Under the pieces are notes generated by a model. It was not told the DNA's origin. It saw nothing but the letters and a program-made list of their open reading frames with translations, and made no database searches. DNA of 64,000 bases from Gemmatimonadales bacterium. Lineage in GTDB: Bacteria; Gemmatimonadota; Gemmatimonadetes; Gemmatimonadales; GWC2-71-9. The stretch is taken from positions 26,018 through 90,017 of the forward strand of contig DASPXD010000149.1 of the NCBI GenBank assembly GCA_035637435.1. Reading direction: 5' to 3'. Positions 1,905-54,000 of this stretch are shown one piece after another. Position 1 is the first letter of the stretch. Every line of letters starts with the position of its first letter. Made by a program: the position numbers and the translations under genes.

Positions 1905-2950
1905 GGGAAGGCCGTGCGTCGTGCGTCGTGCGTCGGTTGAGTCATCTCGAGTCCCGGAAGGGGGAGGTCGGCCCGCGCGTCGAGCGTCCAGTCGCTACGC
2001 TCGCCGAGCCGCAGGCGATGCCAACCGGCGCGCGCGATCATCGCGGCGTTGTCGGCGTTGAGCCGCGGGCTCGCCACGGCCACGCGCGCGACGCCCGCCC
2101 CCCCCAGGCGCTCGGCGGCGCGGGCCGACAGCGCGCGGCTGCACGCGACCCCTCCGCCCAGGACGGCGGTGGAATAGCCGGTCGCGCGCACGGCCCGCTC
2201 CAGCTTGGTGACGAGCACGTCGAGGACGGCATCCTGAAAGCCACGGGCGATATGCGCGCGATCTCTGTCCAGATCGTCCGACGCGCGCACCGCATGCAGC
2301 ACGGCGGTCTTGAGTCCGGAAAACGAGAACTCGAAACCCTCGGCGATCATGGGACGAGGGAAGCTGAAGCGGCTGGGGTCGCCTTCCTGCGCGAGGCGCT
2401 CGATCGCAGGGCCACCCGGATATCCGAGCCCGAGCAGCGTCGCGACCTTGTCGAACGCCTCACCGGCTGCGTCGTCGCGCGTTTCGCCCAACAGGCGGTA
2501 GCGGCCCCAGGCGGGGACGTCGAGCAGCAGCGTATGACCACCGGAGACCAGCAGCGCCACAAACGGCGGCGCGAGGTCACGGTCTTCGACTGCCGGCGCG
2601 AACAAGTGACCTTCCATGTGGTGCACGCCGATGAGCGCCCGATTGCCGGCATACGCGAACGATTTCGCGTAGACCACGCCGACGAGCAGCGCGCCCGCCA
2701 GTCCCGGTCCGGCGGTTACGGCCACCGCGTCGATCGCTGACGGCGCGAGGCCCGCCTCCGCCACGGCGCGATCCACCACCGCCGGGAGCGCGGCGAGGTG
2801 CGCCCGGCTCGCCAGCTCCGGTACGACGCCGCCGAAGACTTTGTGGATGTCCTGCGACAGAATGACGAGGCTCGCGAGCTCACCGCCGACCAGCACTGCG
2901 GCGGACGTCTCGTCGCACGACGTCTCGATGCCGAGGACGGCGTCAGCCAC
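1901..2950 (-). CDS. tsaD: tRNA N6-adenosine threonylcarbamoyltransferase
   Basis: LGIETSCDETSAAV N-terminal motif and GVHHMEGH metal site. The 399-aa ORF is trimmed to GTG 2950 because its Arg/Pro-rich leader overlaps the upstream gene. Confidence 0.9.
   Translation of the reverse strand: MADAVLGIETSCDETSAAVLVGGELASLVILSQDIHKVFGGVVPELASRAHLAALPAVVDRAVAEAGLAPSAIDAVAVTAGPGLAGALLVGVVYAKSFAYAGNRALIGVHHMEGHLFAPAVEDRDLAPPFVALLVSGGHTLLLDVPAWGRYRLLGETRDDAAGEAFDKVATLLGLGYPGGPAIERLAQEGDPSRFSFPRPMIAEGFEFSFSGLKTAVLHAVRASDDLDRDRAHIARGFQDAVLDVLVTKLERAVRATGYSTAVLGGGVACSRALSARAAERLGGAGVARVAVASPRLNADNAAMIARAGWHRLRLGERSDWTLDARADLPLPGLEMTQPTHDARRTAFP
1913..1933. repeat. (CGTGCGT)x3 heptamer array inside the last codons of tsaD, 9 nt upstream of the lgt start
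   Basis: Direct reading: cgtgcgt cgtgcgt cgtgcgt. The same 21-mer occurs at 4576-4596. Confidence 0.9.
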
Positions 2951-3893
2951 GACGGCGCGGGACTGGAGGCGTGGCGCGCCGCCGCAGCGTGACCGAGTCG
3001 GGTATCGCGCGGGCGGTGATGCCGCGGGGCGCGATGACGGTGATCCGCGCCACGCCGCCGCTCGATCCGGTGATGTGGGCGACCACGCGCAGCGAGTCAC
3101 GCGTCAGGGCCTGCACGCGCTCTTCAGGGCCGCGGACGGCGACGGACACGCGTGCCGGTGTGACGATGAAGCTCGTGATGGCACCGGCGCCCGTCTCGAC
3201 CGGAATCCCGCCGAACGAGCGCTCCGCGATGGTCCCCATCTCGCCGGTGACCGTTACCTGCTTGGGCGACAGCCGCACGATGCCGAGCGGCATCGTGTCG
3301 ATGGGCACGTTGCGCGTGAACCCGCCCGCTACACTCGTGATTTCCATCGGCACGGTGGTCACCGAGTCGATCGTAGCGAGACTCTTCTCCGGCCCCACGA
3401 GGCGCGCCGTCGTGGGCGTCATCGAGAGCCCACCGTGCAGAAACTGGCCCGACTCGGGCGTCACGGTCACGAGCGAGACGATGCGCACTTCTTTGCGCGC
3501 CACGCTGTCGAGCGCGAGCGTGATCTCGCTGGGGCGGACCTCCATCACACGCACGTCCGCGCCTTTCGGCAGCGCCAGCTCGACCTCCGTCGGGTCGAGG
3601 TGGATCGTGTAGGTGGATGCCGTGAGGGTGTCGGGGACCCGCCGCGTGATGTCGCCGGCGAGCGAGCGCAGCTTCAGGATCTGGCTGCCCTTGCCGGAGA
3701 TCTGGACGCGGACCTTGGGCGGCTTGTGGACCAGCGCGCGGCCCGGCGGCAGCTGGAGGTTGAGCGTGACGTCGAAGCTCGTGGTCACCGGCTGCTGCAG
3801 CTGCACCGCCACGTAGAGCATCAGCGCGAGAAACAGCGCGGCGCCTTTGATGGGCCAGTTACGGGTGATCAGCTGGAGCAGGCTAGCGCGCAT
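2943..3893 (-). CDS. YbbR-like (CdaR-type) membrane-anchored repeat protein
   Basis: N-terminal anchor (GAALFLALMLYVAVQL) followed by repeated beta-rich segments. The family resemblance was judged by eye only. Confidence 0.6.
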   Translation of the reverse strand: MRASLLQLITRNWPIKGAALFLALMLYVAVQLQQPVTTSFDVTLNLQLPPGRALVHKPPKVRVQISGKGSQILKLRSLAGDITRRVPDTLTASTYTIHLDPTEVELALPKGADVRVMEVRPSEITLALDSVARKEVRIVSLVTVTPESGQFLHGGLSMTPTTARLVGPEKSLATIDSVTTVPMEITSVAGGFTRNVPIDTMPLGIVRLSPKQVTVTGEMGTIAERSFGGIPVETGAGAITSFIVTPARVSVAVRGPEERVQALTRDSLRVVAHITGSSGGVARITVIAPRGITARAIPDSVTLRRRATPPVPRRRG

Positions 3894-4419
3894 CGAGCAG
3901 CCGGCGGATCAGGTTCTCGTTGACCGGCGCATCCCAATCGGCCGCGCCGATGACCTTCTTGACGATCACGCCGTCGCGATCGATGACGAAGCTCTCGGGG
4001 ACTCCAGTGGTCTGATAGATCTGGCGGATCGATCCGTCGCGATCGTGCAGGATCTCGAACGTCAGCCCCAGATCCTTCACGAACTTGTTCACCACGGTCG
4101 AGTCCTCTTCATCGACGCTCACCCCGACGAGCCGGAAATCGGTGCCGGCGAGCTTGCGATGCAGGTGTTCCATCGACGGCATTTCGACCTTGCAGGGTGC
4201 GCACCACGTCGCCCAGATGTTGAGTAGCACGACCTTGCCGCGATAATCCTCGATGCTCGCCGGCCGGCCCGTCGGGAGCTGCACGGCGTCGAAGTCGGGC
4301 GCCGCGGATCCCACCTCGAGCAGATTGAGCTGCGGCCGCAGCTTGATGGCGAGCGCGACGCCGAACACTGCCGTCATCACGACGCTGGCGATCAGCGTCC
4401 ATTGTTGCCGGTTCGTCAT
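3883..4419 (-). CDS. TlpA/ResA-like membrane-anchored thiol:disulfide oxidoreductase
   Basis: Signal anchor plus thioredoxin motif WATWCAPCKVEMP. Confidence 0.8.
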   Translation of the reverse strand: MTNRQQWTLIASVVMTAVFGVALAIKLRPQLNLLEVGSAAPDFDAVQLPTGRPASIEDYRGKVVLLNIWATWCAPCKVEMPSMEHLHRKLAGTDFRLVGVSVDEEDSTVVNKFVKDLGLTFEILHDRDGSIRQIYQTTGVPESFVIDRDGVIVKKVIGAADWDAPVNENLIRRLLDAR

Positions 4420-5090
4420 ACGCTCACCATGCAGCGCCGGCGCAGCTCCTGCACCTCGCGGCCGGGATCAGCGCTGCCGAACACGGCGTTGCCCGCGACG
4501 AATGTGTCGGCGCCGGCCTGATGTGCGGCTGCGATCGTCTGACGCGTAATCCCACCATCGACCTCTAGGAAAAAGCGTGCGTCGTGCGTCGTGCGTAGTA
4601 CGTGGGCGCGCTGGATCTTGTCGTTCGATCCCGGAAGGTAACTCTGTCCACCGAATCCGGGATTGACCGTCATAATCAACAACAAATCGAGATCCCGGAT
4701 CACCTCTGCGGCATGCGCGAGCGGCGTGGCGGGATTGAGCACGAGGCCCGCCATCATGCCGGCTTTCTTTACGGCATCGAGTTGCCGCTGCACGTGAATT
4801 GTGGCTTCGGGATGGAACGAGAACACGGATGCCCCCGCGGCCGCAAACGATTCGATGTAGTCCTCGGGCTCGACCACCATGAGGTGCACGTCGATCGGCT
4901 TGTCGGTCAGCTTGCGCAGCGCCTCGACCATGTTGGCGCCGAACGTGATGTTGGGGACAAAGCGCCCGTCCATGACGTCCACGTGGAGCCAGTCGGCGCC
5001 CGCTTCCAGCACTTGCTCGACCTGCTCCCGCAGACGCGCCAAATCAGCTGATAACACGCTCGGCGCGATGCGGATGCCTCCGTTGGTCAT
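4416..5090 (-). CDS. rpe: Ribulose-phosphate 3-epimerase
   Basis: IAPSVLSADLARL, HVDVMDGRFVPNITFG, MTVNPGFGGQ and EVDGGI blocks. Confidence 0.92.
   Translation of the reverse strand: MTNGGIRIAPSVLSADLARLREQVEQVLEAGADWLHVDVMDGRFVPNITFGANMVEALRKLTDKPIDVHLMVVEPEDYIESFAAAGASVFSFHPEATIHVQRQLDAVKKAGMMAGLVLNPATPLAHAAEVIRDLDLLLIMTVNPGFGGQSYLPGSNDKIQRAHVLRTTHDARFFLEVDGGITRQTIAAAHQAGADTFVAGNAVFGSADPGREVQELRRRCMVSV
4576..4596. repeat. (CGTGCGT)x3 heptamer array in-frame inside rpe
   Basis: Identical 21-mer to 1913-1933. Encodes RTTHDAR in Rpe. Confidence 0.9.
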
Positions 5091-5845
5091 TGCGGACTCC
5101 GAGCCACGATGATGTCCACCACCGTGCCGGGCGCCGCCAGCGTCCCGGCTGCGGGAGTCTGCGCCACGACCGTGCCGGGCGATGCTTCACTCGTGCGCCG
5201 CCGCGTCACGGTCCCCAGTTGCAGCCCTTCCATTTCGAGCCGCGTCCGTGCGTCCGCGGAGGCCATGCCGAGCAGATCGGGAATCGGGATCGTCGGCGCG
5301 CCGCGGCTCACGACCACCGTCAGCCCGGCGCCGGGTGCCAGCGCCGTTCCCGCCGGCGGCCGCGTCATCATCGCGAGGCCGGTGGGCGAGGCCGCCTGCA
5401 CCGACTCCACCTGACTCACCACCAATCCCGCCGACGCGATGAGCGATTGCGCGAGCCCCGCGTCGAGGTTGGCGACATCCGGCACCGGAATCTTGGATGG
5501 GCCGGCGCTCGACACCAGAGTCACCTTCGTTCCTTCAGGCGCGATGACGCCCGGCGGCGGATCCTGCCAGATCACGATCCCCGCCGGGGCGGTCGGATGG
5601 GGTTCGGCGCCGCCCTCCGCGGTCTGCAGCTTCGCCGTCTGGATTTCGCTCTGCGCTTCGGCCAGCGTCAGGCCGAGCACCCGCGGCACGACCTGGTGAC
5701 CGGGGAGAATCGCCGCGGGAAACAGCACGAGGTACGCCGTGAGATAACCAGCGACGACGGCGCCGGTACCGATGGCGACCCACTTCCAGAATCGGGGAGT
5801 GACTTTGAAACCCTCAAGCGGCTCGAAGCGGCGGCGAACGCGCAT
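5087..5845 (-). CDS. Membrane-anchored protein with three PASTA repeats and no kinase or PBP domain
   Basis: One TM helix (WVAIGTGAVVAGYLTAYLVLF) then three repeats of about 65 aa (VPRVLGLTLAEAQSEI..., VPDVANLDAGLAQSLI..., IPDLLGMASADARTRL...). Confidence 0.75.
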   Translation of the reverse strand: MRVRRRFEPLEGFKVTPRFWKWVAIGTGAVVAGYLTAYLVLFPAAILPGHQVVPRVLGLTLAEAQSEIQTAKLQTAEGGAEPHPTAPAGIVIWQDPPPGVIAPEGTKVTLVSSAGPSKIPVPDVANLDAGLAQSLIASAGLVVSQVESVQAASPTGLAMMTRPPAGTALAPGAGLTVVVSRGAPTIPIPDLLGMASADARTRLEMEGLQLGTVTRRRTSEASPGTVVAQTPAAGTLAAPGTVVDIIVARSPQ

Positions 5846-7062
5846 CAGGAAGCCCCCCCCCCCTCCCGCAACAGGCGCGCGGCGTAGGCGCCGTCGATCC
5901 CGTGGCGTTGCGGCAGCGACTGGAAGTCGCCCGCGGCCGTCAGCAGCTCGGCGGGCACCGCATCGCTGCTCGCCCTGGAGAAATCAGCATGCCGGCTCAG
6001 AAAATTCTCCACGACGCTTTCATTTTCCTCCGGCTCGAGCGAGCAGGTCGCATAGATGAGCAGCCCTCCCGGCCGCACGAGCGGCGCGGCTGCCTGGAGC
6101 AGGCGCAACTGCCGCGCCGCGGCCCGCGCAAACACCGCGGGGTGGAGACGCCAGCGTGCGTCGGGATGCCGCCGCATCGTGCCCGTCGCGCTGCACGGCG
6201 CATCGACGAGCACCGCAGCGAGGCTGTCCTCGCGAATCGGCGCCGCCTCAAGATTGGCGGCGAGGCAGCGGATCGCCACTCCCGCGCGCCGAGTCGTCTC
6301 GGCGAGCCGCGCGAGCCGCTCCAGCCGCGCGTCGCCGGCGACGATCCGCGCGCCCGCAGCCTCGAGCGCCACCGCTTTCCCACCGGGCGCGGCGCAGGCG
6401 TCGTACACCTGATCGCCTGGCGGGATCGCCGCGAAGCGAGCGACGAGCGCGTGGGCGGGATCCTGGACGATCCATCCGCCCTCGGTGAAGCCCGGAAGAT
6501 CTGGGGGACGTGGGACGGGAGACGAGGGACGGGTGGAGTGCACCTCCAAGCCGGCGCCAAACGGAGCGCGCGTCGTCTCGACCCCCCGGGCCCTAAGTTC
6601 CTGCTCCAGACGTTCCAAACTCCAGCGCACCGCTTGGAGGATCAACGGCGGTCGCATGTCGTTCCATGCGATTAAGCGTTGAGTCTCCGAGTTTCCATAC
6701 CGAGCCATCCAACGCTTGATCAGCCAATCAGGATGTGTCGCCCCGTCCCGCGTCCCCCGTCCCCCGTCCCCATGAAGGTGCCTCAGAGCTCGGTTGACAT
6801 ACCCGGTGCTTTCCTCACCGACGGTCTCCCGGGCTAGCTCGACGGAAGTGGAGACAGCCGCATGAGACGGTACTCGCGTGAGCCAACGCAATTGGTAGGC
6901 GCCGAGTCGCAGGACGTCGTGCAGGCGGGGATCGGTGCGGCCCAGGTCGAGCGCGTCATCCAGCTCGCGTTGGCGGCGCAGCACGCCGGCCGACAGCTCG
7001 TACGCGAGGCGGCGGTCGCGCTCGGCGAGACCCGTGAGATGGCGGTCGCGCGCATCGGCCAA
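5845..7062 (-). CDS. rsmB: 16S rRNA (cytosine967-C5)-methyltransferase
   Basis: SAM motif DACAAPGGK and catalytic Cys motifs DAPCSATGT and YATCSLEPEENE. Confidence 0.9.
   Translation of the reverse strand: MADARDRHLTGLAERDRRLAYELSAGVLRRQRELDDALDLGRTDPRLHDVLRLGAYQLRWLTRVPSHAAVSTSVELARETVGEESTGYVNRALRHLHGDGGRGTRDGATHPDWLIKRWMARYGNSETQRLIAWNDMRPPLILQAVRWSLERLEQELRARGVETTRAPFGAGLEVHSTRPSSPVPRPPDLPGFTEGGWIVQDPAHALVARFAAIPPGDQVYDACAAPGGKAVALEAAGARIVAGDARLERLARLAETTRRAGVAIRCLAANLEAAPIREDSLAAVLVDAPCSATGTMRRHPDARWRLHPAVFARAAARQLRLLQAAAPLVRPGGLLIYATCSLEPEENESVVENFLSRHADFSRASSDAVPAELLTAAGDFQSLPQRHGIDGAYAARLLREGGGAS
6737..6771. repeat. (CGTCCCC)x4-5 heptamer array inside rsmB (GGGGACG on the coding strand)
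   Basis: gtcgccc cgtcccg cgtcccc cgtcccc cgtcccc. Encodes GDGGRGTRDG. Confidence 0.9.
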
Positions 7063-7126
7063 GGGCGCGCCGGCTCGGACCGCGCGCAGGATCTCCAGAG
7101 CCGCTCGCCGAGCGGCAGTTGCTTCC

Positions 7127-7924
7127 TTAATCCAGCATCCCCCGGGTGGGGGACGACGGCATCGCGACCTCGCGCCGCGGCATCCGGCCGGCGAGATACG
7201 CCGCGCGGCCCGCGATCGTGGCGAGCCGCATCGCCTGCGCCATCGAGACCGGATCCTGTGCGGCGGCGATCGCGGTGTTCATCAGGATCCCGTCCACGCC
7301 TTGCTCCATCGTGACGCACGCGTCGGACGCGGTGCCCACGCCGGCATCGACGATCACCGGCACGTGCAGCCGGCGCTTGATCGTCCGTACGCTGAATGGA
7401 TTCAACAGGCCGAGCCCGCTGCCGATCGGCGAGGCGAGCGGCATCACCGCCGCACAGCCGGCATCCTCGAGCCGCAGCGCGGTCACGAGATCCTCGTTGG
7501 TGTACGCCAGCACGTTGAATCCTTCCTGCACCAGCACCTTCGCCGCCTCGAGCAGCCCCGCTACATCGGGGAGGAGCGTCTCCTCGTCGCCGATCACCTC
7601 GAGCTTCACGAAGTCGTTGAACCCCGCCTCGCGCGCCAGCCGCGCGTAGCGGATCGCGTCGGCCGCGCTGTAGCAGCCGGCGGTGTTGGCGAGCAGGAAG
7701 ATCTTCTTGGGGTCGAGGAAGTGCAGGACGCTCGATTCCTTGGAGCGGTCGAGATTCACCCGGCGCACCGCGACGGTCACGACCTCGGCGCCCGACGCGT
7801 CGATCGCGCGCACCATCGTATCCATGTCGGGATACTTCCCGGTCCCGACCATCAGGCGCGACTGGAACGTCCGCCCGCCGATTTCGAGCGGAGTATCCCG
7901 GATTGTCTCAACTGCGGTAGTCAC
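7127..7924 (-). CDS. thiG: Thiazole synthase
   Basis: 265 aa with KLEVIGDEETLLPD, MPLASPIGSGLG and VIVDAGVGTASDA blocks. GTG start. Confidence 0.92.
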   Translation of the reverse strand: MTTAVETIRDTPLEIGGRTFQSRLMVGTGKYPDMDTMVRAIDASGAEVVTVAVRRVNLDRSKESSVLHFLDPKKIFLLANTAGCYSAADAIRYARLAREAGFNDFVKLEVIGDEETLLPDVAGLLEAAKVLVQEGFNVLAYTNEDLVTALRLEDAGCAAVMPLASPIGSGLGLLNPFSVRTIKRRLHVPVIVDAGVGTASDACVTMEQGVDGILMNTAIAAAQDPVSMAQAMRLATIAGRAAYLAGRMPRREVAMPSSPTRGMLD

Positions 7925-7953
7925 CCGTCCCCCGTCCCCCTTCCCTCATCCCC
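7925..7953. repeat. (CGTCCCC)-family heptamer array filling the thiS-thiG junction
   Basis: cgtcccc cgtcccc cttccct catcccc. It abuts the thiG GTG and covers the thiS stop. Confidence 0.85.
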
Positions 7954-8146
7954 CACCTACGAAATGCACCAGCTCGATCGCGTCCCCTTCGTTGACCTTC
8001 ACGTCGCCGAGCGCGGGTCGCCGCACAATACGACGATTGTGCTCGACAACGACTGCCCGCGGATCGAGCTCGAGCGCTTTCAGCAACTCGAGCAACGTCG
8101 CGCCGTGCGTCACCTGTTTGCGCTCTCCATTGATCACAACATCCAT
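7946..8146 (-). CDS. thiS: Sulfur-carrier protein ThiS
   Basis: 66 aa ending in VHFVGGG (C-terminal Gly-Gly). Start set at internal ATG 8146 because the longer ORF leader is Arg-rich and overlaps thiE. Confidence 0.75.
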   Translation of the reverse strand: MDVVINGERKQVTHGATLLELLKALELDPRAVVVEHNRRIVRRPALGDVKVNEGDAIELVHFVGGG

Positions 8147-8748
8147 TCCCGCATCCTCCGCGCGGCTTTCTCGGGCTCGGCGTCGTCCCATAACGCCCGA
8201 ATCGCCGCGACGCCGTATGCCCCACTGGCTCGCACCTCGCGCACGCGATCGGCACTGATGCCGCCGATGGCAATCACCGCCAGCGCCTCGGCCGCGGCGA
8301 CGATCTGCTCGAGCCCCGCCAGGCCCATTGGTGTGTGGCCCGGGTGCGAGGCGGTCGCGAACACCGGCCCTACAACAAGATAGTCAGCCCCTTCCGTCCT
8401 TGCGGCTTCCGCTTCGGCCAAGTCGTGAACCGACTTGCCGATCCACCACAGCGGATTGAGCGCGCGGGCGGCGCTGACGGGCAGGCTGCCCTGACCGAGC
8501 TGGACGCCGGCCGATGGAACCGCCAGGGCGATGTCCAGGCGGTCGTTCACGAACAGGAACGATGGAAGGTTGGAAAGTTGGACTGACAAGCTGTAATGCT
8601 CGAGCCCCGTGAGCTCCCGCCCTCGGGCGTGAAACGCCAGGTCCGAGCCGCCGCCATCCGACAGGGCGCGCGCGACCGCGTCGAGGTCGGACCGCCGCGC
8701 GATACGCTCATCGGTGATCGCGTGCAGCCGCGGCAGCGCCGCTCTCAC
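8134..8748 (-). CDS. thiE: Thiamine-phosphate synthase
   Basis: LHAITDE, LFVNDRLDIAL and ADYLVVGPVFATASHPG blocks. GTG 8748 overlaps the fmt stop (GTGA). The 395-aa ORF was trimmed. Confidence 0.8.
   Translation of the reverse strand: MRAALPRLHAITDERIARRSDLDAVARALSDGGGSDLAFHARGRELTGLEHYSLSVQLSNLPSFLFVNDRLDIALAVPSAGVQLGQGSLPVSAARALNPLWWIGKSVHDLAEAEAARTEGADYLVVGPVFATASHPGHTPMGLAGLEQIVAAAEALAVIAIGGISADRVREVRASGAYGVAAIRALWDDAEPEKAARRMREWML
8556..8587. repeat. Four tandem GGAAnnTT-type octamers inside thiE
   Basis: ggaacgat ggaaggtt ggaaagtt ggactgac. Related to the tgt octamer unit. Confidence 0.7.
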
Positions 8749-9686
8749 GAGAACCTGGCGCCGGGCTGCAGGCGCGCGCCGCGCAGCCATTCCTCGGCCG
8801 GCATGCGGGCCTTCCCGGCGGGTTGCACCTCGAAGACTTCGACGGCGGCGACCCCCGTCGCGATGACGAGGGAGCCCTGGGCCGAAAGCACCTGGCCGGG
8901 CGCGCCCGCGCCGGGAAACGGAGGCTCCATGACCTTCGGGCTGAACAGCTTGATCTCCGCACCCTCCAACTCCGTCCACGCACCGGGCCGCGGATCGAGC
9001 CCGCGGATCAGGCACCCGATCGCACGCGCGTCCTTCGTCCAATCGATGCGGGCCGTCTCGCGCGTCAGCTTGGGTGCGAACGTCGCGCGGCTCTCGTTCT
9101 GCGGGACGGGTTGGGGCGGCGGATCGCTCTGCTCGAGCATCGCCAGCGTTTCGATCAGCGCCTGCGCGCCCATTTCCGCGAGATGCGCCGCCAGCTCCCC
9201 GCCCGTCACGTCGGACCCGATGCGGTGGGGGATCTGGTGCAGCACGGGCCCGGAGTCCATCCCGGCGTCCAGCTGCATGATCGTCACGCCGGTCGTTTCG
9301 TGGCCGCGGATGATGGCCCACTCGACCGGCGCCGCGCCGCGCAGGCCGGGCAGCAGGGACGGATGCACGTTCACCATGCCGCGCGGCGGCAGTGCCAGCA
9401 GCTCGGGCTTGAGAATGTGGCCGTACGCGACGACGACCCCGATGTCGGGCTTCAGGTCCCGGAGTTGTTTGAGAAATGCCGGATCGGTCGGCTTTTCCGG
9501 CTGCAGCACGAGCAGGTCTTCCGATTCGGCGGCGACCTTGACCGGCGGGGGAATCAGCTGAGATCGGGAGCGTCCCTGCGGTGCATCAGGTTGTGTGACG
9601 ACGGCGACGACGTCGAACCCTTCACCGACCAGCGCGCGCAGTGATAGTACCGCGAATTCGGGCGTACCGAAGAAGACCACGCGCAC
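8745..9686 (-). CDS. fmt: Methionyl-tRNA formyltransferase
   Basis: MRVVFFGTPEFAV N-terminus and VNVHPSLLPGLRGAAP motif. Confidence 0.93.
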   Translation of the reverse strand: MRVVFFGTPEFAVLSLRALVGEGFDVVAVVTQPDAPQGRSRSQLIPPPVKVAAESEDLLVLQPEKPTDPAFLKQLRDLKPDIGVVVAYGHILKPELLALPPRGMVNVHPSLLPGLRGAAPVEWAIIRGHETTGVTIMQLDAGMDSGPVLHQIPHRIGSDVTGGELAAHLAEMGAQALIETLAMLEQSDPPPQPVPQNESRATFAPKLTRETARIDWTKDARAIGCLIRGLDPRPGAWTELEGAEIKLFSPKVMEPPFPGAGAPGQVLSAQGSLVIATGVAAVEVFEVQPAGKARMPAEEWLRGARLQPGARFS

Positions 9687-10231
9687 TTACAGTTCACCCG
9701 CCGGCTCCGGCGTGACCTCCTTGAGATATCCCTTCTTTCCCTTGCGCGACTTCTTCCACTTCGCGACCAGGAGATTCCGCTTCACGGCGCTGAGGTGATC
9801 GAGAAACAGGATGCCGTCGAGGTGGTCGATCTCGTGCTGGATCGCGCGCGCCTTGTAGCCGTGCGCCTCCGTGCGGACCTTGCGGCCTTCCTGATCCAGC
9901 GCCTCCACGACGACCCGCGCCGATCGCGTCACATCGCCGAAAATCTCGGGGATCGAGAGACAGCCCTCTTCGGCGATCTCCTCCTCGTCGCTGCGCTCCA
10001 CGATTTGAGGATTGATCAGCACGAGCGGCGGCGGGGCCTCTGCGCCGACATCCACCACCGCCACCCGGCGGGCGACGCCGATCTGATTGGCCGCGAGGCC
10101 GACGCCCTTGGCCGCGCGCATCGTCTCGAACAGATCGTCCACCAGCCGGCGCACCGCATCGTCGACCGCGGCGACCGGCGGCGATTTTTGCCGCAGCACC
10201 GGCGAGCCCAGGACGTGCAGCGTCCGCACCG

Positions 10232-10235
<4 letters not shown>
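9687..10235 (-). CDS. def: Peptide deformylase with a Lys-rich C-terminal tail
   Basis: GVGLAANQIG, EGCLSIP and HEIDHLDG motifs. GTG 10235 overlaps the yajC stop (GTGA). The 312-aa ORF was trimmed. Confidence 0.9.
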
Positions 10236-11817
<1,582 letters not shown>

Positions 11818-11818
<1 letters not shown>

Positions 11819-12840
11819 CACATGATGAGCATGGCATCGCCATAACTATAGAACCGATATCCCTTCTGTACCGCCTCACGATACGCGGCCATCACCCGCT
11901 CGTATCCTCCGAACGCGCAGACCAGCATCAGCAGCGTGGAGCGCGGCAAATGAAAGTTCGTGATCAGATGGTTTACGACCTTGAAATCGTATGGCGGGCG
12001 AATGAAGAGACGCGTTTCGCCCGCGCCGGCGCGCACTTGACCGTGCGAGTCAGCGGCTGACTCGAGCGCTCGCACCACAGTCGTTCCCACCGCCCACACC
12101 TTTCCGCGGTTGTGGTTGATGCCGCTCGCGGCGCCCGGGGAAATCTCGTACGGCTCAGGGTGCATCGTGTGCTTATCGAGGTCGTCGGTCTCGACCGGCT
12201 TGAACGTGCCCGGTCCCACGTGGAGATCCAGCGCCGTGACCAGCGTGCGGCGCTCGTGGATCTGCGCCAACAATTCCGCCGTGAAATGCAGGCCCGCGGT
12301 CGGCGCGGCGACGCTGCCGTCGTGCGTCGCATACACGGTCTGGTAGCGCTCCCGATCGGCTTGCGTCGGAGGCCGCCGGATATACGGCGGCAGCGGTACC
12401 TCACCGTACTTCGCGAGCGTGGCTTGCCCATCCAGCGTGCCGGCGAATCGCATGCGCCGCAGCCCGCCGCCCAGCACTTCCACGATCTCCACCGCGCTGT
12501 CGTCACCGAACGTGACGCGCCGGCCAGGCTTGAGCTTGCCGCCGGGGTGCGCCATCGCGAGCCAGGTCCCGTCGGCGAGCTCGCGAACCACGAGGAACTC
12601 GGCGTCCTGTCCCCCTTCCCGCTTCCCGCGGAGTCGTGCCGGAATGACGCGCGACGTGTTGATGACGAGCAGATCGCCCGGGGGGATCAGCTCCAGCAGG
12701 TCGCGAAAGTGGAGGTGCCGCGTCGTACCCGTTGCGCGATCGAGCACGAGGAGCCGGCTCGCGGAGCGATCAGCGAGCGGATGCTGGGCGATCTGCGAGC
12801 TTGGGAGATCGTAATCGAAGTCCGATAATTGGAATTGCAT
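11818..12840 (-). CDS. queA: S-adenosylmethionine:tRNA ribosyltransferase-isomerase
   Basis: MQFQLSDFDYDLPSSQIAQHPL N-terminus and NFHLPRSTLLMLV. Start set at ATG 12840 because the 28 upstream codons of the ORF are encoded by the repeat. Confidence 0.92.
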
Positions 12841-42774: not shown

Positions 42775-43323
42775 ATGCGTTGCCTAGCCCTCAATGCCTC
42801 GTTCGAGCCGCTGACCATGGTGCCGGTGCGCCGGGCGCTGCGGCTGGTCATTGATGGGAAGGCCGAGGTCGTCGAGGCGGAAGGCACGCCGGTCCATTCC
42901 GAGCGAATGGCGGTGCCACGCCCGGCTGTCATCCGACTCGTCCGCTTCGTCCACGTCCCCCGCCGCTTCCGTCGCCAAGTCACCAACACGTTCCTGTTTG
43001 CGCGCGACAACTACCGCTGCCAGTTCTGCGGCCGCTCGCAGCAGGAGCTGCGGCAGCGCGAGTGCTTGACGCGCGACCATCTCGTCCCGTTGTCCCGCGG
43101 CGGCACGAACGCCTGGACCAACGTCCTGACGGCGTGCTCGAGCTGCAACACCCGCAAGGGCAACCTGCTGCCCGAGGAAGTGGGCATGCACCCGCTGCGC
43201 TCGCCGCACGAGCCGCACTTCGTGCATCTCTCGTGGGCGGTGCGCCGGCTCACGCGGACGCAGGCGAAGTACATCCGGCTCTTCTACGGAGCGGATGTGC
43301 TGGCGACGCTCGAGGCGTTGTAA
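42775..43323 (+). CDS. HNH endonuclease (stand-alone, McrA-like fold)
   Basis: CQFCG...DHLVPLSRGG...N...CSSCNTRKGN HNH/zinc motif. The 495-aa ORF was trimmed to ATG 42775. Confidence 0.8.
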   Translation: MRCLALNASFEPLTMVPVRRALRLVIDGKAEVVEAEGTPVHSERMAVPRPAVIRLVRFVHVPRRFRRQVTNTFLFARDNYRCQFCGRSQQELRQRECLTRDHLVPLSRGGTNAWTNVLTACSSCNTRKGNLLPEEVGMHPLRSPHEPHFVHLSWAVRRLTRTQAKYIRLFYGADVLATLEAL

Positions 43324-44320: not shown

Positions 44321-46065
44321 CTAGAACCGGTGATCGAGCCGGACCGTGAAGCGCAGCCGTTCGCCGGTTGTGACCGCCTTGGCGATGTAGACTCCGAATC
44401 CTCCCCAGTCGACGCCCAGTCCCGCGTCCACGAGCCAACTCGAGAACCCGGGGATTCTGCCGGACGGCACGTGGCCTGGTTGATTACCAACCAGCCAGCC
44501 CTGGCCCGCATCCGCGAACACCACGACGTCCAGTCCTTCCAGCCAGAAGAACGATCCCGCGCCCTCGTCGCGCTCCGGTTTGTCGTCCTTCCACGGGTTG
44601 TAGCTCCAGTTGAGCTTCACGTGGCCGCGATACTCCGTCTGGAACGCGATGACGCGGTCGCACGCCGCGACCCGTGCGGCGGCGAACGCGGGGTCGGTGA
44701 AGGCGGTGTTGCACGAGCTGGCGCGGAACGGATGGCCGGGCATCGGGTCGGGACCGCCGAGCGACAGACGGCGCTGCAGCGGCAGCGGATCGCCGCCCGC
44801 CCAGCCGCCGGCGATCAGCCGCAGGTTCACGCGTCCCGACGGGCTGATGCGGGCGTAATGCCGGAGGTCGAAGAACATCCGGCCGAAGCCGTACGACCCA
44901 TCGGTCGGAATCGAATCGCGGATGCTCGCCGGTACGCCGCTGTGGGGGACGACGTCTTTACTGCCCGAATGCTCGAACGTCGTGCGTACCAGCCATCCCG
45001 AGGAGGGCTCATCGGGATCGTTGCGCGTGTCGAGCGCGGCGCCCAGAGCGAGCGTCGTGAAGTGCCCTTCGTCGATCGGCGGGTTCGGGCGCCACGGCTC
45101 GGAATTGCGGAACACCGTCCAGGGATCCTGCGTGCCGACGCCCGTCTGCCATTCACGACGCAGCTCGAGCGACAGCGCGATCTGGCGTTCCGGTTGCGCG
45201 AACACCCGCGCCGCCCATCCCTTGTTCAGGTAGTAGTCGCGGTAATCGCGGCCGAAGATAAACGCGCTCCACCCGATCTCGGCATCATGCAGTCCCCAGT
45301 CTTCGACGGGTGAGACGACGTCGAATGCGCGCAGGCCGAACCCCACCGGGCGCACGTCGCCGGCGCGCAGTTCGCTGCGGAACATGTAGCCGAGGTCGCT
45401 GCGCTTGTCGGAGAGATCGCCGGCCGACCGAAACACGCCCAGCGCATCGACGCGCAGCCGGAAGTTCTGCTCGAGCTTCCAGTCGACCAGCGGCCCGAAG
45501 ACGACCGGCAGCCCCTCGATGCGATTGAACGTTCCCCCCGTGGCGATCGTCAGGGACGAGCGCGAGTCGGCGGTACCCCAGGAGACGTGCGCGCCCGGAT
45601 TCCACAGCCGGCGCCGCAGGTTGGGGGCGTAGACGATCTCGTCCCCTTCCTTATGCAGGCGGTAGAGCAGGGGCTCGCGATACTGCCGCACCTCCCCGCC
45701 GATCCGCGCTTTGGCCGTGTCGTTGACCGTGCCGCCGACGACGATGACGTCGCCGGTCACTTCGGCCCCGCCCCCCTGATCGAACAGCAGATCGCCGTTG
45801 ATCACGACGAGCGTGCCCTGGACCCGGCCCGCGACGAGCACCGGCCCGTTGCGGACCGCCACGTTGCCGCGCCACTCGTTGCCACGCGGCAGCCGGGTCC
45901 GGCCGACGAGGCGGGTCGTGCCGGCGGCGTTGTAGAACCGGATGACTTCCTCGGACACGACGCGCGGCAGCGCCCGCGCCTCGAGCGTGGCGCTCGAGCT
46001 GTCGGGATGGATGACGATCGTGGTGTCCTGTAGGGCGGGAGCGGCCAGCGCTAACAGTAGTGTGA

Positions 46066-47460: not shown

Positions 47461-48683
47461 TGGGGGGACGGGGGAAGGGGGACGGGGGAAGGGGGGAAGA
47501 CGATCGCAAACGTCGCTCCACCCCCCGGGGTCTCGCTTACGCTGATCGTGCCGCGATGGGCTTCGAGCGTGACGCGCACCAGCGCGAGGCCGAGGCCGGT
47601 GCCGTCGTCCTTCGTCGTGAAGTACGGCTCGAAGATGCGCTGGCGCAGATCGGCGGGGATGCCGGGGCCGTGGTCGGCGATCGTCACCGCCAGCCCGGCG
47701 CCGTCCCCGGTGACCATCACGTCGATCGCGCCGCGGCCGTTCATCGCCTCGGCGGCGTTGCGATAAAGATTCGCAAACGCGCCCCGCAGCGGCTCGTAAT
47801 GTCCCAACAGCGTGCGCGGTCCGCCGTTCGCCGTGACCCGGACGGCGACGTCGCTCGGCACTCCCGTGCGTCCCAGCTCTTCCAGCAGCTCGACGAGATC
47901 GACCTCGCTCTGCGGCCCCTCGGGCAGGCGACCAAACTCCGAGAACTCCTTGGCGAGGCGCTCCAGGCGGTCGGTTTCCGCCGCCATCACTTGCACCGCA
48001 ATGTCCTTCCGTCCTTCCGTCATTCCATCGTTCCGTCGCAGTTGGGCAACCGCGATCCGCATCGATGTCAATGGATTCTTGATTTCATGCGCCACGCGTC
48101 GGGCGACTTCGCGGAACGCGCGCAGCCGCTCGGCTTCCAGCTCGCGCTCGCGCGCGGCGGCGAGCGCCGCAGCCAGCTCGCGCAATGCCTGGCGCAGCGC
48201 CTCGAATTCGGGTGCACCGCGGCTGAGCGGCGCCCCCCGGAGAGGGAGCGGCTCGTGCCGCCGGATCAGCTGCGTCCAGCCGACCATCTCGTCGATCGGA
48301 CGCGAGAGCTGCCGTGACAAATGGCCGGCGAGATTCACCGCCGCATAGAGGACCGCGGCGCCGAACAGCACGATGACCAACGCGAAGCCGGCCGTGTAGT
48401 AGCGCAGGAACGTTTCGGCCCGGCGCGCGAAGCTCACCGATGCCGAGACTTCGTCGAGGTGATTGCGCAGCAACGCGCGCTCGCGAACGGTGAGATGCAG
48501 CGTGTCCACGCCCTCGAGCAGCGTGCGGGCGGTGATGGCGACGCGCTCCGTCGCGGCGCGGGCGCCTGCCGCCGGTAGGAGCCGGCGTACCGACAGGACC
48601 CACCCCGCGACGGCGACCACCGTCGGGACCGCGGTCATGACGACGAGGATGACGAAGATTCGCCGCCGGAAGGGAAGCGCCAT
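47457..48683 (-). CDS. Sensor histidine kinase (two TM helices, HAMP, HisKA, HATPase; NtrY-like)
   Basis: H-box AHEIKNPLTS, N-box YRNAAEA, and G-boxes DHGPGI and GTGLGLALV. Confidence 0.85.
47462..47499. repeat. (GGGGACG GGGGAAG)x2+ heptamer array at the kinase/response-regulator junction
   Basis: ggggacg ggggaag ggggacg ggggaag gggggaag on the plus strand. Its complement encodes the kinase tail PPSPVPLPPSPH. Confidence 0.9.
48003..48034. repeat. Four tandem octamers (GTCCTTCC-type) inside the kinase HisKA region
   Basis: gtccttcc gtccttcc gtcattcc atcgttcc. Encodes NDGMTEGRKD. Confidence 0.8.
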
Positions 48684-48766
48684 ATCCGGCCGAATCTAGG
48701 GAATTGGGCTGGCTGTGACAATTCGACACGGCCAAAAGACCGTACGACGCACGATCAGGAGCTCAC

Positions 48767-52015: not shown

Positions 52016-52341
52016 CCGCCTGCGCCGCCTGTCATCGGCCGACCGAGATGGCAGGCATGTACGTCGTGCAGGACGGCATGGGCTCGCTGTTCGCCTGTGA
52101 CGACCCCAAGAAGGTCGTGACCGTGCAGGATACGGCGCTCGCCGCGCGCTATCGCGCGCTCGCGGCGGGTCCCACCCAGCCGCTCTACGTCCGCGTCCGC
52201 GGCGTCGCGGGTCACGAAGGCAGCATTTACGGTGGCAGGCGTTACTTCTTCGTTCAGCAGATACTCGAGATCCGCGCGCGCAAGCGTGGCGAGTGCCCGC
52301 GCGTCGCGCAGCCGGCCTCACAGATGCTGGCTCCATCATGA
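51976..52341 (+). CDS. Hypothetical lipoprotein
   Basis: Lipobox AFILAACAAC. Its ATG lies inside the last 40 nt of the permease gene. Confidence 0.4.
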   Translation: MAVRSYCSAAFILAACAACHRPTEMAGMYVVQDGMGSLFACDDPKKVVTVQDTALAARYRALAAGPTQPLYVRVRGVAGHEGSIYGGRRYFFVQQILEIRARKRGECPRVAQPASQMLAPS

Positions 52342-52350
52342 GAGGGGTCC

Positions 52351-53088: not shown

Positions 53089-53969
53089 TCGGCCGCGCGC
53101 GAGCCGCGCTGCTGATCGGCGCGGCCTTCGCGTGCGCATCGGGCACACCCACCGTCCCGCCGCCCGTCCCCCCCCCGCCGCCGCCTCCGTCTCCCCCTCC
53201 CAACCCGTGGACGCTGGTTTGGAGCGACGAATTCTCGGGCCCGGCGGGCACAGGTATCGACACGACTAGGTGGCGCTACGACACGGCCGACGGCTGCTCG
53301 CAGGGCAACTGCGGGTGGGGCAACAGCGAGAAGGAGTATTACCGCTCGGCGTCCGAGAACATCGCCCTGAACGGCGACGGACAGCTGGCGATCGTCGCGC
53401 GCACCGCGCCCCCCCCGGCTGGTTTAACGTGTTACTACGGAGCTTGTCGCTATACCTCGGCGAAGATCACGACGCGTGGCAAGGTCTCGGTCCTCCCGGG
53501 GCGCGTCGAGGCACGCATCAAGCTCGCCGCCGGGCAGGGACTCTGGCCGGCGTTCTGGATGCTCGGCGACAACATCGGGACGGTTGGCTGGCCGACCTCT
53601 GGCGAGCTCGACATCATGGAAAACCGTGGCAGCCAGTCGAGCATGACGAGCTCGGCCGTGCACGGCCCCGGCTACTCCGGCAACACGCCGTTCGCGCACC
53701 CCACCACGACCACCGCGACCGATTTCCACGTGTACGCCGTCGAGTGGGATGCCCAGTCGATCCGCTACTACGTGGACGGCCGGCTGCACTACGGCGTGTC
53801 GCGTGCCGCCGTCATGACGTACGGCATGTGGGTCTTCGACCAGACGTTCTTCATAATCCTCAATCAGGCGGTGGGCGGCCACTTCGACGGCGATCCGCAG
53901 TCGGACGCGATCTTCCCAGCAACGATGCTGGTCGACTATGTGCGCGTGTATCGATCCTCGGTGAGATGA
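53064..53969 (+). CDS. Glycoside hydrolase family 16 (beta-glucanase/laminarinase-like) lipoprotein
   Basis: Lipobox, Pro-rich linker, catalytic motif GELDIME, and WPAFWML. Confidence 0.85.
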   Translation: MASSSESLVGRARAALLIGAAFACASGTPTVPPPVPPPPPPPSPPPNPWTLVWSDEFSGPAGTGIDTTRWRYDTADGCSQGNCGWGNSEKEYYRSASENIALNGDGQLAIVARTAPPPAGLTCYYGACRYTSAKITTRGKVSVLPGRVEARIKLAAGQGLWPAFWMLGDNIGTVGWPTSGELDIMENRGSQSSMTSSAVHGPGYSGNTPFAHPTTTTATDFHVYAVEWDAQSIRYYVDGRLHYGVSRAAVMTYGMWVFDQTFFIILNQAVGGHFDGDPQSDAIFPATMLVDYVRVYRSSVR

Positions 53970-54000
53970 CGGCCGGACGGCCGGACGGCCCGACGGCCTG
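53969..54000. repeat. Four tandem octamers (ACGGCCnG) starting at the GH16 stop codon
   Basis: acggccgg acggccgg acggcccg acggcctg. Confidence 0.85.

Follow-up and report, generated by a model that had tools for sequence, protein, structure and literature searches.

Arrays of short tandem units at gene junctions and in frame within housekeeping genes of a Gemmatimonadales bacterium

We analyzed a 64,000-nt stretch of DNA from a Gemmatimonadales bacterium (GenBank assembly GCA_035637435.1, contig DASPXD010000149.1, positions 26,018 to 90,017), referred to here as the window, in which arrays of short tandem units occupy gene junctions and, in frame, the interior of housekeeping genes. The window has a G+C content of 64-70%, and the close homologues of its genes are annotated as Gemmatimonadales and derive from metagenome-assembled genomes (MAGs) of soil members of this order. 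A gene model based on codon usage comprises 66 genes with a coding fraction of 96.2%, in agreement with an initial annotation, made from the sequence alone, that had described the region as almost devoid of noncoding DNA; 17 adjacent same-strand gene pairs are joined by 4-nt overlaps. The genes that carry or adjoin arrays were named by NCBIfam and Pfam and include tsaD, lgt, rpe, rsmB, thiG, thiS, thiE, tgt, queA, ruvB, and yebC, as well as an amidohydrolase gene, argR, and the genes for a histidine kinase and an NtrC-type regulator. Approximately 20 housekeeping genes on the minus strand, from yebC (15952) to lgt (1053), form a single codirectional string with mostly 4-nt overlaps; any stem in this string would therefore lie within a very long polycistronic transcript. 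The model placed the start of queA too early, and an NCBIfam alignment together with the gene call in L081 (loci compared with the window are designated by L numbers) moved it to the ATG at 12840. L081 is an independent NCBI MAG contig (GCA_009772095.1, WNFX01000078.1) that is 99.85% identical to the window over 21 kb and carries the same arrays.

Tandem Repeats Finder (TRF) and direct reading recovered, in place, all of the at least 13 short-unit arrays reported in the initial annotation, along with two that it had missed (6503-6533, the complement of 6741-6771, and 12610-12629). In total, there are 18 arrays at 14 sites. The typical array is ~20-35 nt long and consists of 7-8-nt units, occasionally of 9-10-nt units. 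Strong arrays, defined by 2.9 or more copies, a TRF score of 40 or higher, and a period not divisible by 3, numbered 13 in the window, compared to 0.18 ± 0.48 (maximum 2) in 100 dinucleotide-preserving shuffles. Shuffling codons only within genes left ~4.7 arrays, namely, the intergenic ones that such a shuffle does not affect; there are thus ~8 arrays inside genes, where essentially none are expected. In-frame arrays inside open reading frames (ORFs) account for 11 of the 18 and are spread over eight genes: the tsaD tail, rpe, rsmB (two), thiE, tgt (two arms), queA, the C-terminal part of the amidohydrolase, and a loop and the tail of the histidine kinase. An earlier count of seven was too low, although the observation that the frame is unbroken was correct. 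The remaining seven fill five short spacers, which are thiS/thiG, queA/tgt (two arms), ruvB/queA (two arms), the yebC leader, and the 3' end of a GH16 glucanase gene. According to the gene model that starts queA too early, 375 of the 537 array bases are coding. The sites thus comprise gaps separating a stop from a start codon, C-terminal tails, a single 5' leader, and protein loops, and the arrays make up most of the noncoding DNA in the array-bearing part of the genome, where the 81-nt and 84-nt spacers flanking queA are the hairpins themselves. The arrays are the following.

1913-1935, minus strand: ACGCACG ×3.3 (sense; CGTGCGT on the forward strand), C-terminal tail of tsaD, with the overlapping lgt start (ATGA, 1901-1904) 9-31 nt downstream
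4576-4596, minus strand: ACGCACG ×3.0 (sense; CGTGCGT forward), in frame in rpe, amino acids 166-172
6503-6533, minus strand: rsmB arm B, CCCGTCC-type ×4 (sense), in frame, amino acids 177-187, complementary to arm A, 208 nt away
6741-6771, minus strand: rsmB arm A, GGGGACG ×4.4 (sense; CCCCGTC forward), in frame, amino acids 98-108
7920-7954, minus strand: GGGGGAC/GGGAAGG ×5 (sense; GTCCCCC forward), spans the thiS stop codon and fills the thiS-thiG spacer
8563-8582, minus strand: TTCCAACN ×2.5-3 (sense; TGGAAAGT ×2.5 by TRF), in frame in thiE, amino acids 56-63
11150-11207, minus strand: in-frame tgt hairpin, amino acids 179-196, TTGGAANG ×3, 4-8-nt loop, ATTCCAAC ×3 (arm 11150-11176, TGTTGGAA ×3.2 by TRF; inverted partner 11181-11207)
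11742-11819, minus strand: hairpin in the intergenic spacer separating the queA stop from the tgt start, ATTGCGG ×4.6, 15-nt loop, CCGCAAT ×4.6 (arms 11742-11773 and 11788-11819; ATTGCGG/AATCCGC by TRF)
12610-12629, minus strand: GGGAAGC/GGGAAGG ×2.9 (sense), in frame in queA
12848-12926, minus strand: hairpin in the intergenic spacer separating the ruvB stop from the queA start, ATTGCGG arms (12848-12878 and 12894-12926; ATTGCGG/AATCCGC by TRF), loop unlike that of the queA/tgt hairpin
15956-15984, minus strand: GGGAGCG ×4.1 (sense; CCGCTCC forward), immediately upstream of the yebC start
37331-37372, plus strand: TCCCTTACCG ×4.2, C-terminal part of the amidohydrolase gene, 48-89 nt upstream of argR
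47462-47498, minus strand: CCCCCGT/CCCCCTT ×4.7 (sense; GGGGGAC/GGGGGAA forward), histidine-kinase tail, ends at the overlapping start of the NtrC-type regulator gene
48003-48037, minus strand: GGAAGGAC ×4.4 (sense; GTCCTTCC ×4.4 by TRF), in frame, loop of the HisKA dimerization domain
48736-48756, plus strand: degenerate ACGACGCACG remnant in the divergent kinase/yjbQ intergenic region, adjoining the palindrome GTGACAATTCGACAC
53968-53998, plus strand: GACGGCCG ×3.9, begins at the stop codon of the GH16 glucanase gene

The ruvB-queA hairpin is wholly intergenic, because queA starts at ATG 12840. The remnant at 48736-48756, previously listed as a partial CGTGCGT copy near 48741, has only ~2.3 degenerate units, but its site holds full arrays in relatives. 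For the array at 53968-53998, no orthologous flank was found among the compared loci. rsmB also holds a degenerate 9-nt array, GCGAGCCGC ×5.3, at 6302-6352 (minus strand). The palindrome GTGACAATTCGACAC (GTGTCGAATTGTCAC on the opposite strand), at 48715-48729 in the kinase/yjbQ divergent region, is conserved in L099, L113, L115, L121, L123, and L145 and looks like an operator or activator-binding site of the kinase/NtrC-type operon. Inspection by eye located putative G-quadruplex motifs (at least four tracts of three or more G, loops of 1-7 nt) at 6741-6771, 7920-7954, 47462-47498, and 6503-6533; the ACGCACG, ATTGCGG, and TTCCAAC families lack this motif.

The enrichment extends to the whole clade. 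Array density was 1-3 per 10 kb throughout the clade, with periods 7 and 8 dominating, whereas 80 unrelated tgt loci had a density of 0.30 per 10 kb. Perfect runs of at least three identical copies in 618 kb of clade DNA numbered 15 for period 7 (0.0 in shuffles), 6 for period 6 (0.2), 4 for period 8 (0.0), 3 for period 9 (0.0), and 2 for period 10 (0.0).

Four array pairs are inverted with respect to each other, and these are the four best inverted repeats of the whole 64-kb window. Three such hairpin pairs had been recognized before; the inverted-repeat search raised this number to four through the split pair in rsmB. The ruvB/queA pair (31 nt, 90% complementary) has a predicted folding energy of -46.8 kcal/mol (z = -6.1), the queA/tgt pair (31 nt, 84% complementary) one of -46.5 kcal/mol (z = -5.5), and the pair inside tgt (27 nt, 81% complementary) one of -28.7 kcal/mol (z = -4.3). 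In rsmB, the arms (30 nt, 90% complementary) are 208 nt apart, and this segment is predicted to fold into a domain of ~205 nt that is closed by the two arrays (-148 kcal/mol, z = -5.4). Arrays without a partner were predicted to be unstructured. A scan with promoter and terminator consensus sequences ruled out that the hairpins are intrinsic terminators: none of the 10 terminator-like sites in positions 1-17000 is an array hairpin, and the hairpins have loops of 15-16 nt and no T-run after them.

The strongest feature of the arrays, overlooked in the initial annotation, is the covariation of paired arrays, including the split pair in rsmB. The rsmB arrays are at identical codons in all genomes compared, and the peptides that they encode are not conserved. 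Arm B nevertheless complements arm A through at least seven unit families, as follows.

Window: arm A GGGGACG, arm B CGTCCCC
L082: arm A GGGAGCA, arm B TGCTCCC
L084 and L085: arm A CGGCTAT, arm B ATAGCCG
L166: arm A GGGAAAC, arm B GTTTCCC
L167: arm A GGAGCCG, arm B CGGCTCC
L318: GGTGYCN, arms complementary, duplex of -63 kcal/mol
L320: GGGTATT, arms complementary

RNAalifold recovered the rsmB stem without guidance. In the alignment of the stem, 82.6% of the cells were paired, compared to 65.9% in shuffles (0 of 500 as high) and 34-49% when the partners were slid by 1-3 columns; changes on both sides were observed in 14 of 27 pairs, and the covariation score was 0.49, compared to 0.20 in shuffles. 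For further RsmB homologues, we deduced the heptamer of each arm from the arm peptide. The heptamers were reverse complementary (0-1 mismatch) in 28 of 36 proteins, representing 21 arm-type combinations, whereas the null expectation from mismatched arm types was 12%; two further unit types were confirmed as complementary at the DNA level. The exception is L319:132-1454, a 2.4-kb Logan contig in which a GGGAAAC-type arm A faces a noncomplementary ATAGCCG-type arm B; this allele either arose by natural recombination in the 208 nt that separate the arms or reflects a chimera in the short-read assembly. The arrays also bear the mark of coding constraint: in the ATAGCCG arm of both L084 and L085, the only unit in which TAG would be in frame reads TAC. 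As a separate observation, in the close relative L168 (Tgt ~91% identical), no rsmB was called between thiG and a PASTA gene (7959-8051), and a tblastn search of the L168 locus did not find one either; rsmB is therefore apparently dispensable in the clade.

Selection for a stem in mRNA would be expected to leave a bias toward G·U pairs on the sense strand. In 11 hairpins, the sense folds were no more stable than the antisense folds (among them -46.5/-38.1, -46.8/-46.9, -23.8/-26.9, and -56.3/-63.4 kcal/mol), and by our own tally the non-Watson-Crick cells of the rsmB stem comprised ~11 G·U and ~9 A·C. No sense-strand bias was thus seen in this small sample of 11 hairpins and the rsmB stem, and RNA selection on the sense strand was rejected on the basis of the unbiased folding energies. 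The complementarity is of the Watson-Crick type on both strands and therefore points, within the same small sample, to the DNA level.

Syntenic relatives were compared in two regions. For the tgt region, L081 and eight further loci (L082-L085 and L166-L169) came from protein searches and contig look-ups; L082-L085 share 82-89% DNA identity with the window. For the kinase/regulator region, a metagenome scan supplied 80 loci with identities from 97% to 58%. The analysis of more than 50 syntenic relatives revealed that sites last and unit sequences turn over, which bears out the earlier impression of a shared architecture with many different units. At sites where the window has an array, some relatives have a bare stop/start overlap (TGATG, TTGA, or ATGA), and others have an array of the same size with another unit; clean empty sites were seen at 82-89% DNA identity. 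Four junctions illustrate this.

queA/tgt junction: ATTGCGG (window), CTATCGG (L084), ACGYGGA (L169); empty (TGATG) in L082, L085, and L166
ruvB/queA junction: ATTGCGG (window), GTGCGGC (L084); empty in L082, L085, L166, and L167
thiS/thiG junction: GGGGGAC (window, L168), TAAGAGAC ×3 (L166), GGGGCTRA (L084); empty (ATGA) in L082, L085, and L167
kinase/regulator junction: at least seven different arrays among relatives with at least 86% identity; bare ATGA overlap in all relatives with 75-82% NtrC identity

The junction hairpins of the window, L084, and L169 are equal in size (82-85 nt, four units per arm) and differ in their units, and the ruvB/queA hairpins of the window and L084 have recognizably homologous loops between different arms. 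In L168, the queA-tgt spacer (L168:3068-3349) measures 316 nt and holds an additional 93-aa ORF on the opposite strand. The array in the tsaD tail is absent from L082, L085, and L166 and is represented by ACGCACC in L084, ACGCCGC in L167, and ACGCACG in L168, and the queA array at 12610-12629 is 18 nt longer in L084 through GGGGACG-type units. In the nearest species representatives of the genome collection (Tgt identities of 61% and 54%), the loci contain no arrays.

Within tgt, a single point holds all length variation among 120 homologues of ~90% identity. No insert was present in 68 of the 120, and the others had 2, 4, 7, 14, 17, 18, or at least 24 additional residues. At the DNA level, the larger inserts are hairpins of differing 8-nt units, with other genomes having other hairpins at the same codon; inserts at this site measure 12-72 nt and are unrelated in sequence between genomes. 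The window hairpin adds 42 nt (14 aa) to the 376-aa form without an insert and is also an insertion relative to the solved TGT structures, in which the site corresponds to a variable surface segment. We dropped an attempt to count gains and losses on a neighbor-joining tree of the 120 Tgt proteins, as the distances of 0.03-0.08 are too unresolved and recombination probably confounds them.

A comparison with orthologs, which the initial annotation had proposed as a way to recognize lineage-specific insertions, showed that several sites are empty in relatives and that the rpe, thiE, kinase-loop, amidohydrolase-tail, and rsmB arrays are in all relatives examined, with near-constant length and differing units. 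The rpe array leaves the net length unchanged relative to the family profile and was found, with degenerate units, in all five relatives. In thiE, four unit types share a constant place and length (TTCCAACN in the window, TTCCGTCN in L085, GGCCGYCN in L084, and GTCSGACN in L167), and the amidohydrolase tail has arrays in 8 of 8 relatives, with either 10-nt units (GGGCGGCGAA, GGGCGGTAGA) or 8-nt units (CGGACGGC, GGGCGGTT). The kinase loop maintains an 8-nt periodicity of constant length in 27 relatives; among 24 distinct sequences, mean unit identity was 0.71 at period 8, compared to 0.24-0.33 at periods 6, 7, 9, and 10. Between genomes, units of the loop were 0.67 identical at the same position and 0.66 at different positions, so that their positional identity has been erased. 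L105:301-311, L113:6300-6310, and L114:2292-2302 have an extra insertion with CCCTAAAGGAC within or beside this array. We rejected CCCTAAAGGAC as a tiny dispersed element, because among L001-L165 it is confined to the kinase-loop site and in the window it occurs once, with one mismatch (46025-46035). Across more than 40 assemblies, all in-ORF arrays are in frame in every one.

Several arrays can be related to sequence at their own site. Units of the form GGGAGCR in the yebC leader, which include a Shine-Dalgarno-like GGAG, number 0 in L082 (a single GGAG), 2-3 in L085, 4 in L166, and 6 in L084, a series in which the array visibly grows from a single GGAG-containing seed. The thiS/thiG array is a repeat of GG(A/G)TGAC from the ancestral stop/start overlap, and the kinase-tail arrays are extensions of a local TTCCC(G/T)CC. 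Relatives have full arrays or hairpins of ATTGCGG, AATGCGG, AACGCGG, CGTGCGG, or CGTGCGT at the kinase/yjbQ intergenic site. The units at hairpin sites (ATTGCGG, AATGCGG, AACGCGG, CGTGCGG, GATGCGG, and CGTGCGT) form a series of steps of 1-2 substitutions around a YGCGG core, and this series fits gradual concerted change.

Comparison at the strain level showed stable arrays. Between the window and L081, there are 31 single-nucleotide polymorphisms (SNPs) in 21 kb and no indel, including none at 11 arrays, so the copy-number polymorphism for which a search had been suggested did not appear between these two strains. Three of the 31 SNPs are in arrays, which constitute 2% of the bases (p = 0.023), a mild excess.

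The reading that we favor, with a probability of roughly 0.5, is that the arrays are self-homogenizing repeats at the DNA level that arise through slippage and arm-to-arm template switching and are filtered by the reading frame. Replication slippage on a local seed would create arrays and rehomogenize them, template switching on the folded-back or opposite strand would make the inverted partner, and conversion of the quasi-palindrome type would keep both arms matched. As an outcome, units within an array, as well as paired arms, would evolve in concert, with the site fixed and the sequence drifting. Purifying selection would act as a filter only: arrays would persist where an insertion is harmless, as in stop/start gaps that were formerly overlaps, C-terminal tails, a 5' leader, surface loops, and domain linkers, and inside ORFs they would survive only with frame-keeping lengths and unit variants free of in-frame stops. 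Slippage and template switching as actual enzymatic events are what we infer from these patterns. Such a mechanism would explain why arrays are enriched, why some start from local seeds and empty sites are clean, why sites persist while units change in concert, and why arms covary without a G·U bias, as well as the details of frame and stop codons.

A number of observations weigh against this reading, which does not account for the predominance of 7-nt units, the length limit of ~30-35 nt, the small number of units in use, the wide recurrence of ATTGCGG, or the way in which nontriplet units are homogenized in ORFs. Array length has its mode at 28-35 nt and drops sharply above, in clade and viral loci alike, without a decaying tail. 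The 95 clade arrays with period 7 or 8 represent only 39 unit classes, whereas heptamers alone allow 1,172, which plain slippage leaves unexplained, and ~12% of the array pairs at nonorthologous sites share their unit (at most one mismatch) both within and between genomes. Homogenization of units specific to each genome was rejected as the source of this sharing, which amounted to 11.4% within and 12.2% between genomes (Fisher p = 1), in favor of a clade-wide vocabulary; avoidance of stop codons was rejected as the reason for its small size, as 74% of random heptamers at the GC content of the host are stop-free in six frames. Inside ORFs, homogenization would need three-unit steps or conversion, because slippage by one unit shifts the frame, and the 208-nt gap between the rsmB arms exceeds classic quasi-palindrome conversion events. 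The absence of indels at 11 arrays between 99.85%-identical strains points to a low rate, and near-perfect periodicity kept over deep divergence could equally be due to selection. In an exact scan of IMG/VR for arrays of 3.4 copies with one free position, ATTGCGG was found at 68 loci, in mostly distinct contexts with GC contents from 0.39 to 0.71, followed by GGGAGCA (53), GGGGACG (9), ACGCACG (7), and CGGCTAT (5), whereas the scrambled controls TGGACTG and GTAGTCG gave 5 and 1. ATTGCGG arrays are thus 10-60 times commoner than scrambled controls, across very different GC contents. The GGGAGCA count was discarded as independent evidence, since most of it is one orthologous site of related phages. 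The clade-wide limited vocabulary, together with the presence of ATTGCGG in many phage-like contigs, indicates that copying or constraint beyond plain local slippage is at work.

ATTGCGG hairpins are found at two unrelated sites in three genomes, flanking queA in the window and upstream of the kinase gene in L113 and L121. The arms of these four hairpins are almost identical and their loops are unrelated, and the same applies to the viral loci. IMG/VR contigs with ATTGCGG contain many heptamer arrays, with 4.2 arrays per 10 kb and period 7 in 191 of 266. In two of these contigs, the phage-like L193 (12.7 kb) and L219 (10.2 kb), we counted 19 and 13 arrays, respectively, built of tandem 7-nt and 9-nt units of several families; these arrays are often inverted pairs and are present in nearly every gap between ORFs, which makes both contigs suited to the study of array architecture in a small genome. 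Low-GC Bacteroidales MAG loci (L069:659-760, 4206-4290, and 4936-5020; L070:1170-1235) show four to five copies of a heptamer, a loop, and four to five copies of its complement. This hairpin design equals that of the window, so high GC is not a requirement for the architecture. A Pontiellaceae locus (L074:8844-8874 and 11152-11182) shares the design, with near-identical AACCAAT arrays ~2.3 kb apart, one of them just downstream of tgt. A literature search for the ATTGCGG array sequence found no description.

Selection on nucleic acid structure offers a different explanation, according to which imperfect stems of ~30 bp are kept for a function and covariation reflects compensatory selection; we consider it possible but somewhat unlikely. 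The stems could serve as RNase III-type sites in double-stranded RNA, in differential stability along the 15-kb string of overlapping genes, in translational uncoupling, or as structures of single-stranded DNA. Such selection would agree with the rsmB arms, which remain complementary across seven or more unit families without conservation of the encoded amino acids, with the equal size of same-junction hairpins in the window, L084, and L169 despite their different units, with the high predicted stability (-46 to -56 kcal/mol, z of about -5 to -6), and with an arm length of uniformly ~30 nt across phyla, and a regulatory role has been proposed elsewhere for heptamer arrays near start codons (PMC4679880; bioRxiv 10.1101/2022.06.06.494920). 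However, the sense strand has no G·U advantage, many arrays are unpaired and unstructured, there is neither a T-tract terminator signature nor an Rfam match, and one rsmB allele (L319) is noncomplementary; moreover, close relatives with compact overlaps lack the junction hairpins, which are hence dispensable. Phase variation through contingency loci, in which hypermutable repeats toggle genes via copy number, is very improbable. It would be in line with the range of 0 to 6 copies in the yebC leader among relatives and with the location of several arrays just upstream of start codons, yet the arrays are short (3-5 units), affect housekeeping genes, and inside ORFs are always in frame, and classical phase-variable repeats are excluded by the stability, without an indel at 11 arrays, between the window and L081. 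An artefact, chance, or selection for repeats at the protein level has a practically negligible probability. The sequences are metagenome assemblies, and high GC inflates low-complexity matches; an assembly artefact is nevertheless excluded by the presence of the same arrays, without an indel, in the independent L081, the kind of check that the initial annotation had pointed to. Tgt proteins that are 100% or nearly identical were also retrieved by BLASTP from ENA, JGI, and NCBI (P0002-P0004), and arrays are at orthologous sites in dozens of assemblies. Against chance stand 13 arrays versus 0.18 in shuffles, and against protein-level selection a periodicity of 7-8 nt rather than 3, 6, or 9 and peptides that are not conserved.

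It is also conceivable, but quite unlikely, that array cassettes, solo or as inverted pairs, are nonautonomous mobile DNA resembling REPINs (hairpins formed by doublets of repetitive extragenic palindromic [REP] sequences) or Rickettsia palindromes, which insert in frame in genes, and are spread or overwritten by a trans-acting enzyme and exchanged through phages. The initial annotation had preferred a generating process or a structure over one mobile element, a preference that the clean empty sites, the unrelated loops of same-unit hairpins, and the local seeds support; it had overlooked the limited shared vocabulary and the occurrence of ATTGCGG in phage-like contigs. Copying would account for the common vocabulary of the clade, for the ATTGCGG hairpin at two unrelated sites in three genomes with identical arm microvariants, for the unit and the inner boundary CGGGTAA that the queA-tgt hairpin of L084 has in common with the rsmB arms of L084 and L085, for the 68 ATTGCGG loci in IMG/VR (1 and 5 for scrambled controls), for the 13-19 arrays in 10-13 kb of some phage-like contigs, and for like tgt insertions in lineages whose Tgt backbones are not nearest neighbors. 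Replicating copies of REPINs or miniature inverted-repeat transposable elements (MITEs), however, do not have unrelated loops, as hairpins with the same arms do everywhere here. No target-site duplication is visible at the compared sites, and a search among the genes of the 64-kb window for a transposase, a REP-associated tyrosine transposase (RAYT; Y1 transposase), or a reverse transcriptase found none encoded. In rsmB, the arms lie on either side of 208 nt of conserved host coding sequence, and their position and length stay constant while the units change. Because ATTTCGG is a common variant in every context, shared microvariants may be convergent, and some arrays clearly come from local seeds. 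A further reading, tentative and in our view unlikely, is that the array stems are a distinct and widespread class of self-perpetuating DNA hairpin with two ~30-nt arms of tandem 7-mers, kept complementary by a dedicated or structure-guided copy-and-convert process at the DNA level, in frame in genes of essential pathways, able to bracket a whole protein domain (rsmB), and with a vocabulary (for example, ATTGCGG) exchanged among bacteria of several phyla and their phages.

The window arrays belong to the heptamer-dominated kind of long simple sequence repeats (long SSRs) and short tandemly repeated repetitive (STRR) sequences and form a lineage-wide repeat population. We know of no description of inverted pairs, arm covariation, or unit turnover at fixed sites for long SSRs, the survey of which, to our knowledge, did not cover Gemmatimonadota. 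Heptamer tandem repeats of bacteria have been known since 1990, the year in which Mazel and coworkers reportedly described STRR sequences as tandem heptanucleotide repeats of heterocystous cyanobacteria. The resemblance to STRR sequences noted in the initial annotation is fair, as both consist of heptanucleotide units in tandem that are scattered over many loci; further likenesses are the occurrence of several unit families in one genome and transcription with operons. STRR units, however, are restricted to heterocystous cyanobacteria, mostly intergenic, and often longer, and their consensus sequences differ from the window units (ACGCACG, ATTGCGG, GGGGACG, GGGAGCG, and others). Mycobacterial interspersed repetitive units, said to have been described by Supply and colleagues in 1997, are likewise tandem repeats between operon genes that respect overlapping stop and start codons, but with units of 40-100 bp that contain small ORFs and are neither heptamers nor hairpins. 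The Rickettsia palindromic elements, which Ogata and colleagues reportedly found in 2000, are hairpin-forming DNA in frame in housekeeping genes, and the tgt hairpin and rsmB arms resemble them as palindromic in-ORF sequences that keep the frame. Both they and REPINs differ in being 100-150-bp families with a conserved whole sequence and (presumed) transposition, compared to the tandem-heptamer arms, unrelated loops, and clean empty sites seen here. REPINs are similar in consisting of inverted doublets whose arms are conserved (Bertels and Rainey 2011, PMC3116915), but their copies are nearly identical throughout, including the spacer, whereas the four ATTGCGG hairpins share arms only and the 64-kb window encodes no RAYT.

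The suggestion that no equivalent is known in high-GC genomes does not hold. According to Mrázek, Guo, and Shah (2007, PNAS), as reported in PMC4692102 and PMC4679880, long SSRs (units of 5-11 nt) are typical of large high-GC genomes of nonpathogens, heptamers are the commonest among them, and slippage was proposed as their origin. The same reports describe arrays that are longer than composition allows, a lead of heptamers, and a patchy phylogenetic distribution, to which the high-GC host of the window, a soil Gemmatimonadales with a dominant period of 7, corresponds; the reported tendency, which is not a definition, of nontriplet units to be mainly noncoding contrasts with 11 of 18 arrays in genes. 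Rehm et al. (2015; PMC4692102) described G-rich heptamer arrays with the units GGGAATC in Xanthomonas and GGGGAYT in Nostoc, which have approximately four units and some inverted pairs and which at the same intergenic sites of close relatives vary in length and sequence. The GGGGACG family of the window likewise has a putative G-quadruplex motif. In contrast, the arrays of Rehm et al. have one dominant unit per genome and are noncoding, whereas the window has many families, most without G-quadruplex potential, and many arrays in ORFs. TAACTGA repeats of Beggiatoaceae, cyanobacteria, and Bacteroidetes (MacGregor 2015, PMC4679880) form arrays of 2-6 heptamer copies just upstream of start codons, and their unit recurs in distant phyla without known transfer, as ATTGCGG does in IMG/VR; they differ in having a single unit with stops in all frames, which excludes it from ORFs, and hairpin pairs were not reported. 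We found no description of the occurrence of such arrays in Gemmatimonadota, of in-frame placement in housekeeping genes, of a split inverted pair within a gene, or of wholesale covariation of arms.

Elsewhere in the window, a stand-alone gene for an HNH endonuclease (182 aa, 42775-43323, plus strand; PF14279/PF01844) between argH and the gene for a PCYCGC-motif protein is the sole nuclease-like or mobile-looking gene. The largest gene-free stretches, 30652-31548 (897 nt) and 52016-52350 (335 nt), have no tRNA and no Rfam match and may be missed genes or regulatory regions. A scan of the window against Rfam 15 gave 0 matches at or above the gathering score, and the Rfam and tRNA scans found nothing.

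Among long simple repeats, heptamers proved in 2007 to be the most frequent (Mrázek, as reported in PMC4692102 and PMC4679880). This lineage represents a natural experiment, with dozens of syntenic genomes in which the same sites are empty, filled, or filled with other units. The covarying pairs inside a coding region allow selection on the protein to be separated from constraints on the nucleic acid, and whether a homogenizing mechanism at the DNA level or a selected structure is responsible, why the unit is 7 nt, and why the length is ~30 nt can all be tested here. For the organisms themselves, the arrays create most of the intergenic DNA of an otherwise gap-free genome and add variable peptides to conserved enzymes, namely, Tgt, RsmB, ThiE, TsaD, and the histidine kinase, and they will disturb gene calling, the choice of start codons, and strain typing in Gemmatimonadota MAGs. 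If the reading as self-perpetuating hairpins were true, the arrays would be a new kind of genetic element or mutational system rather than passive microsatellites.

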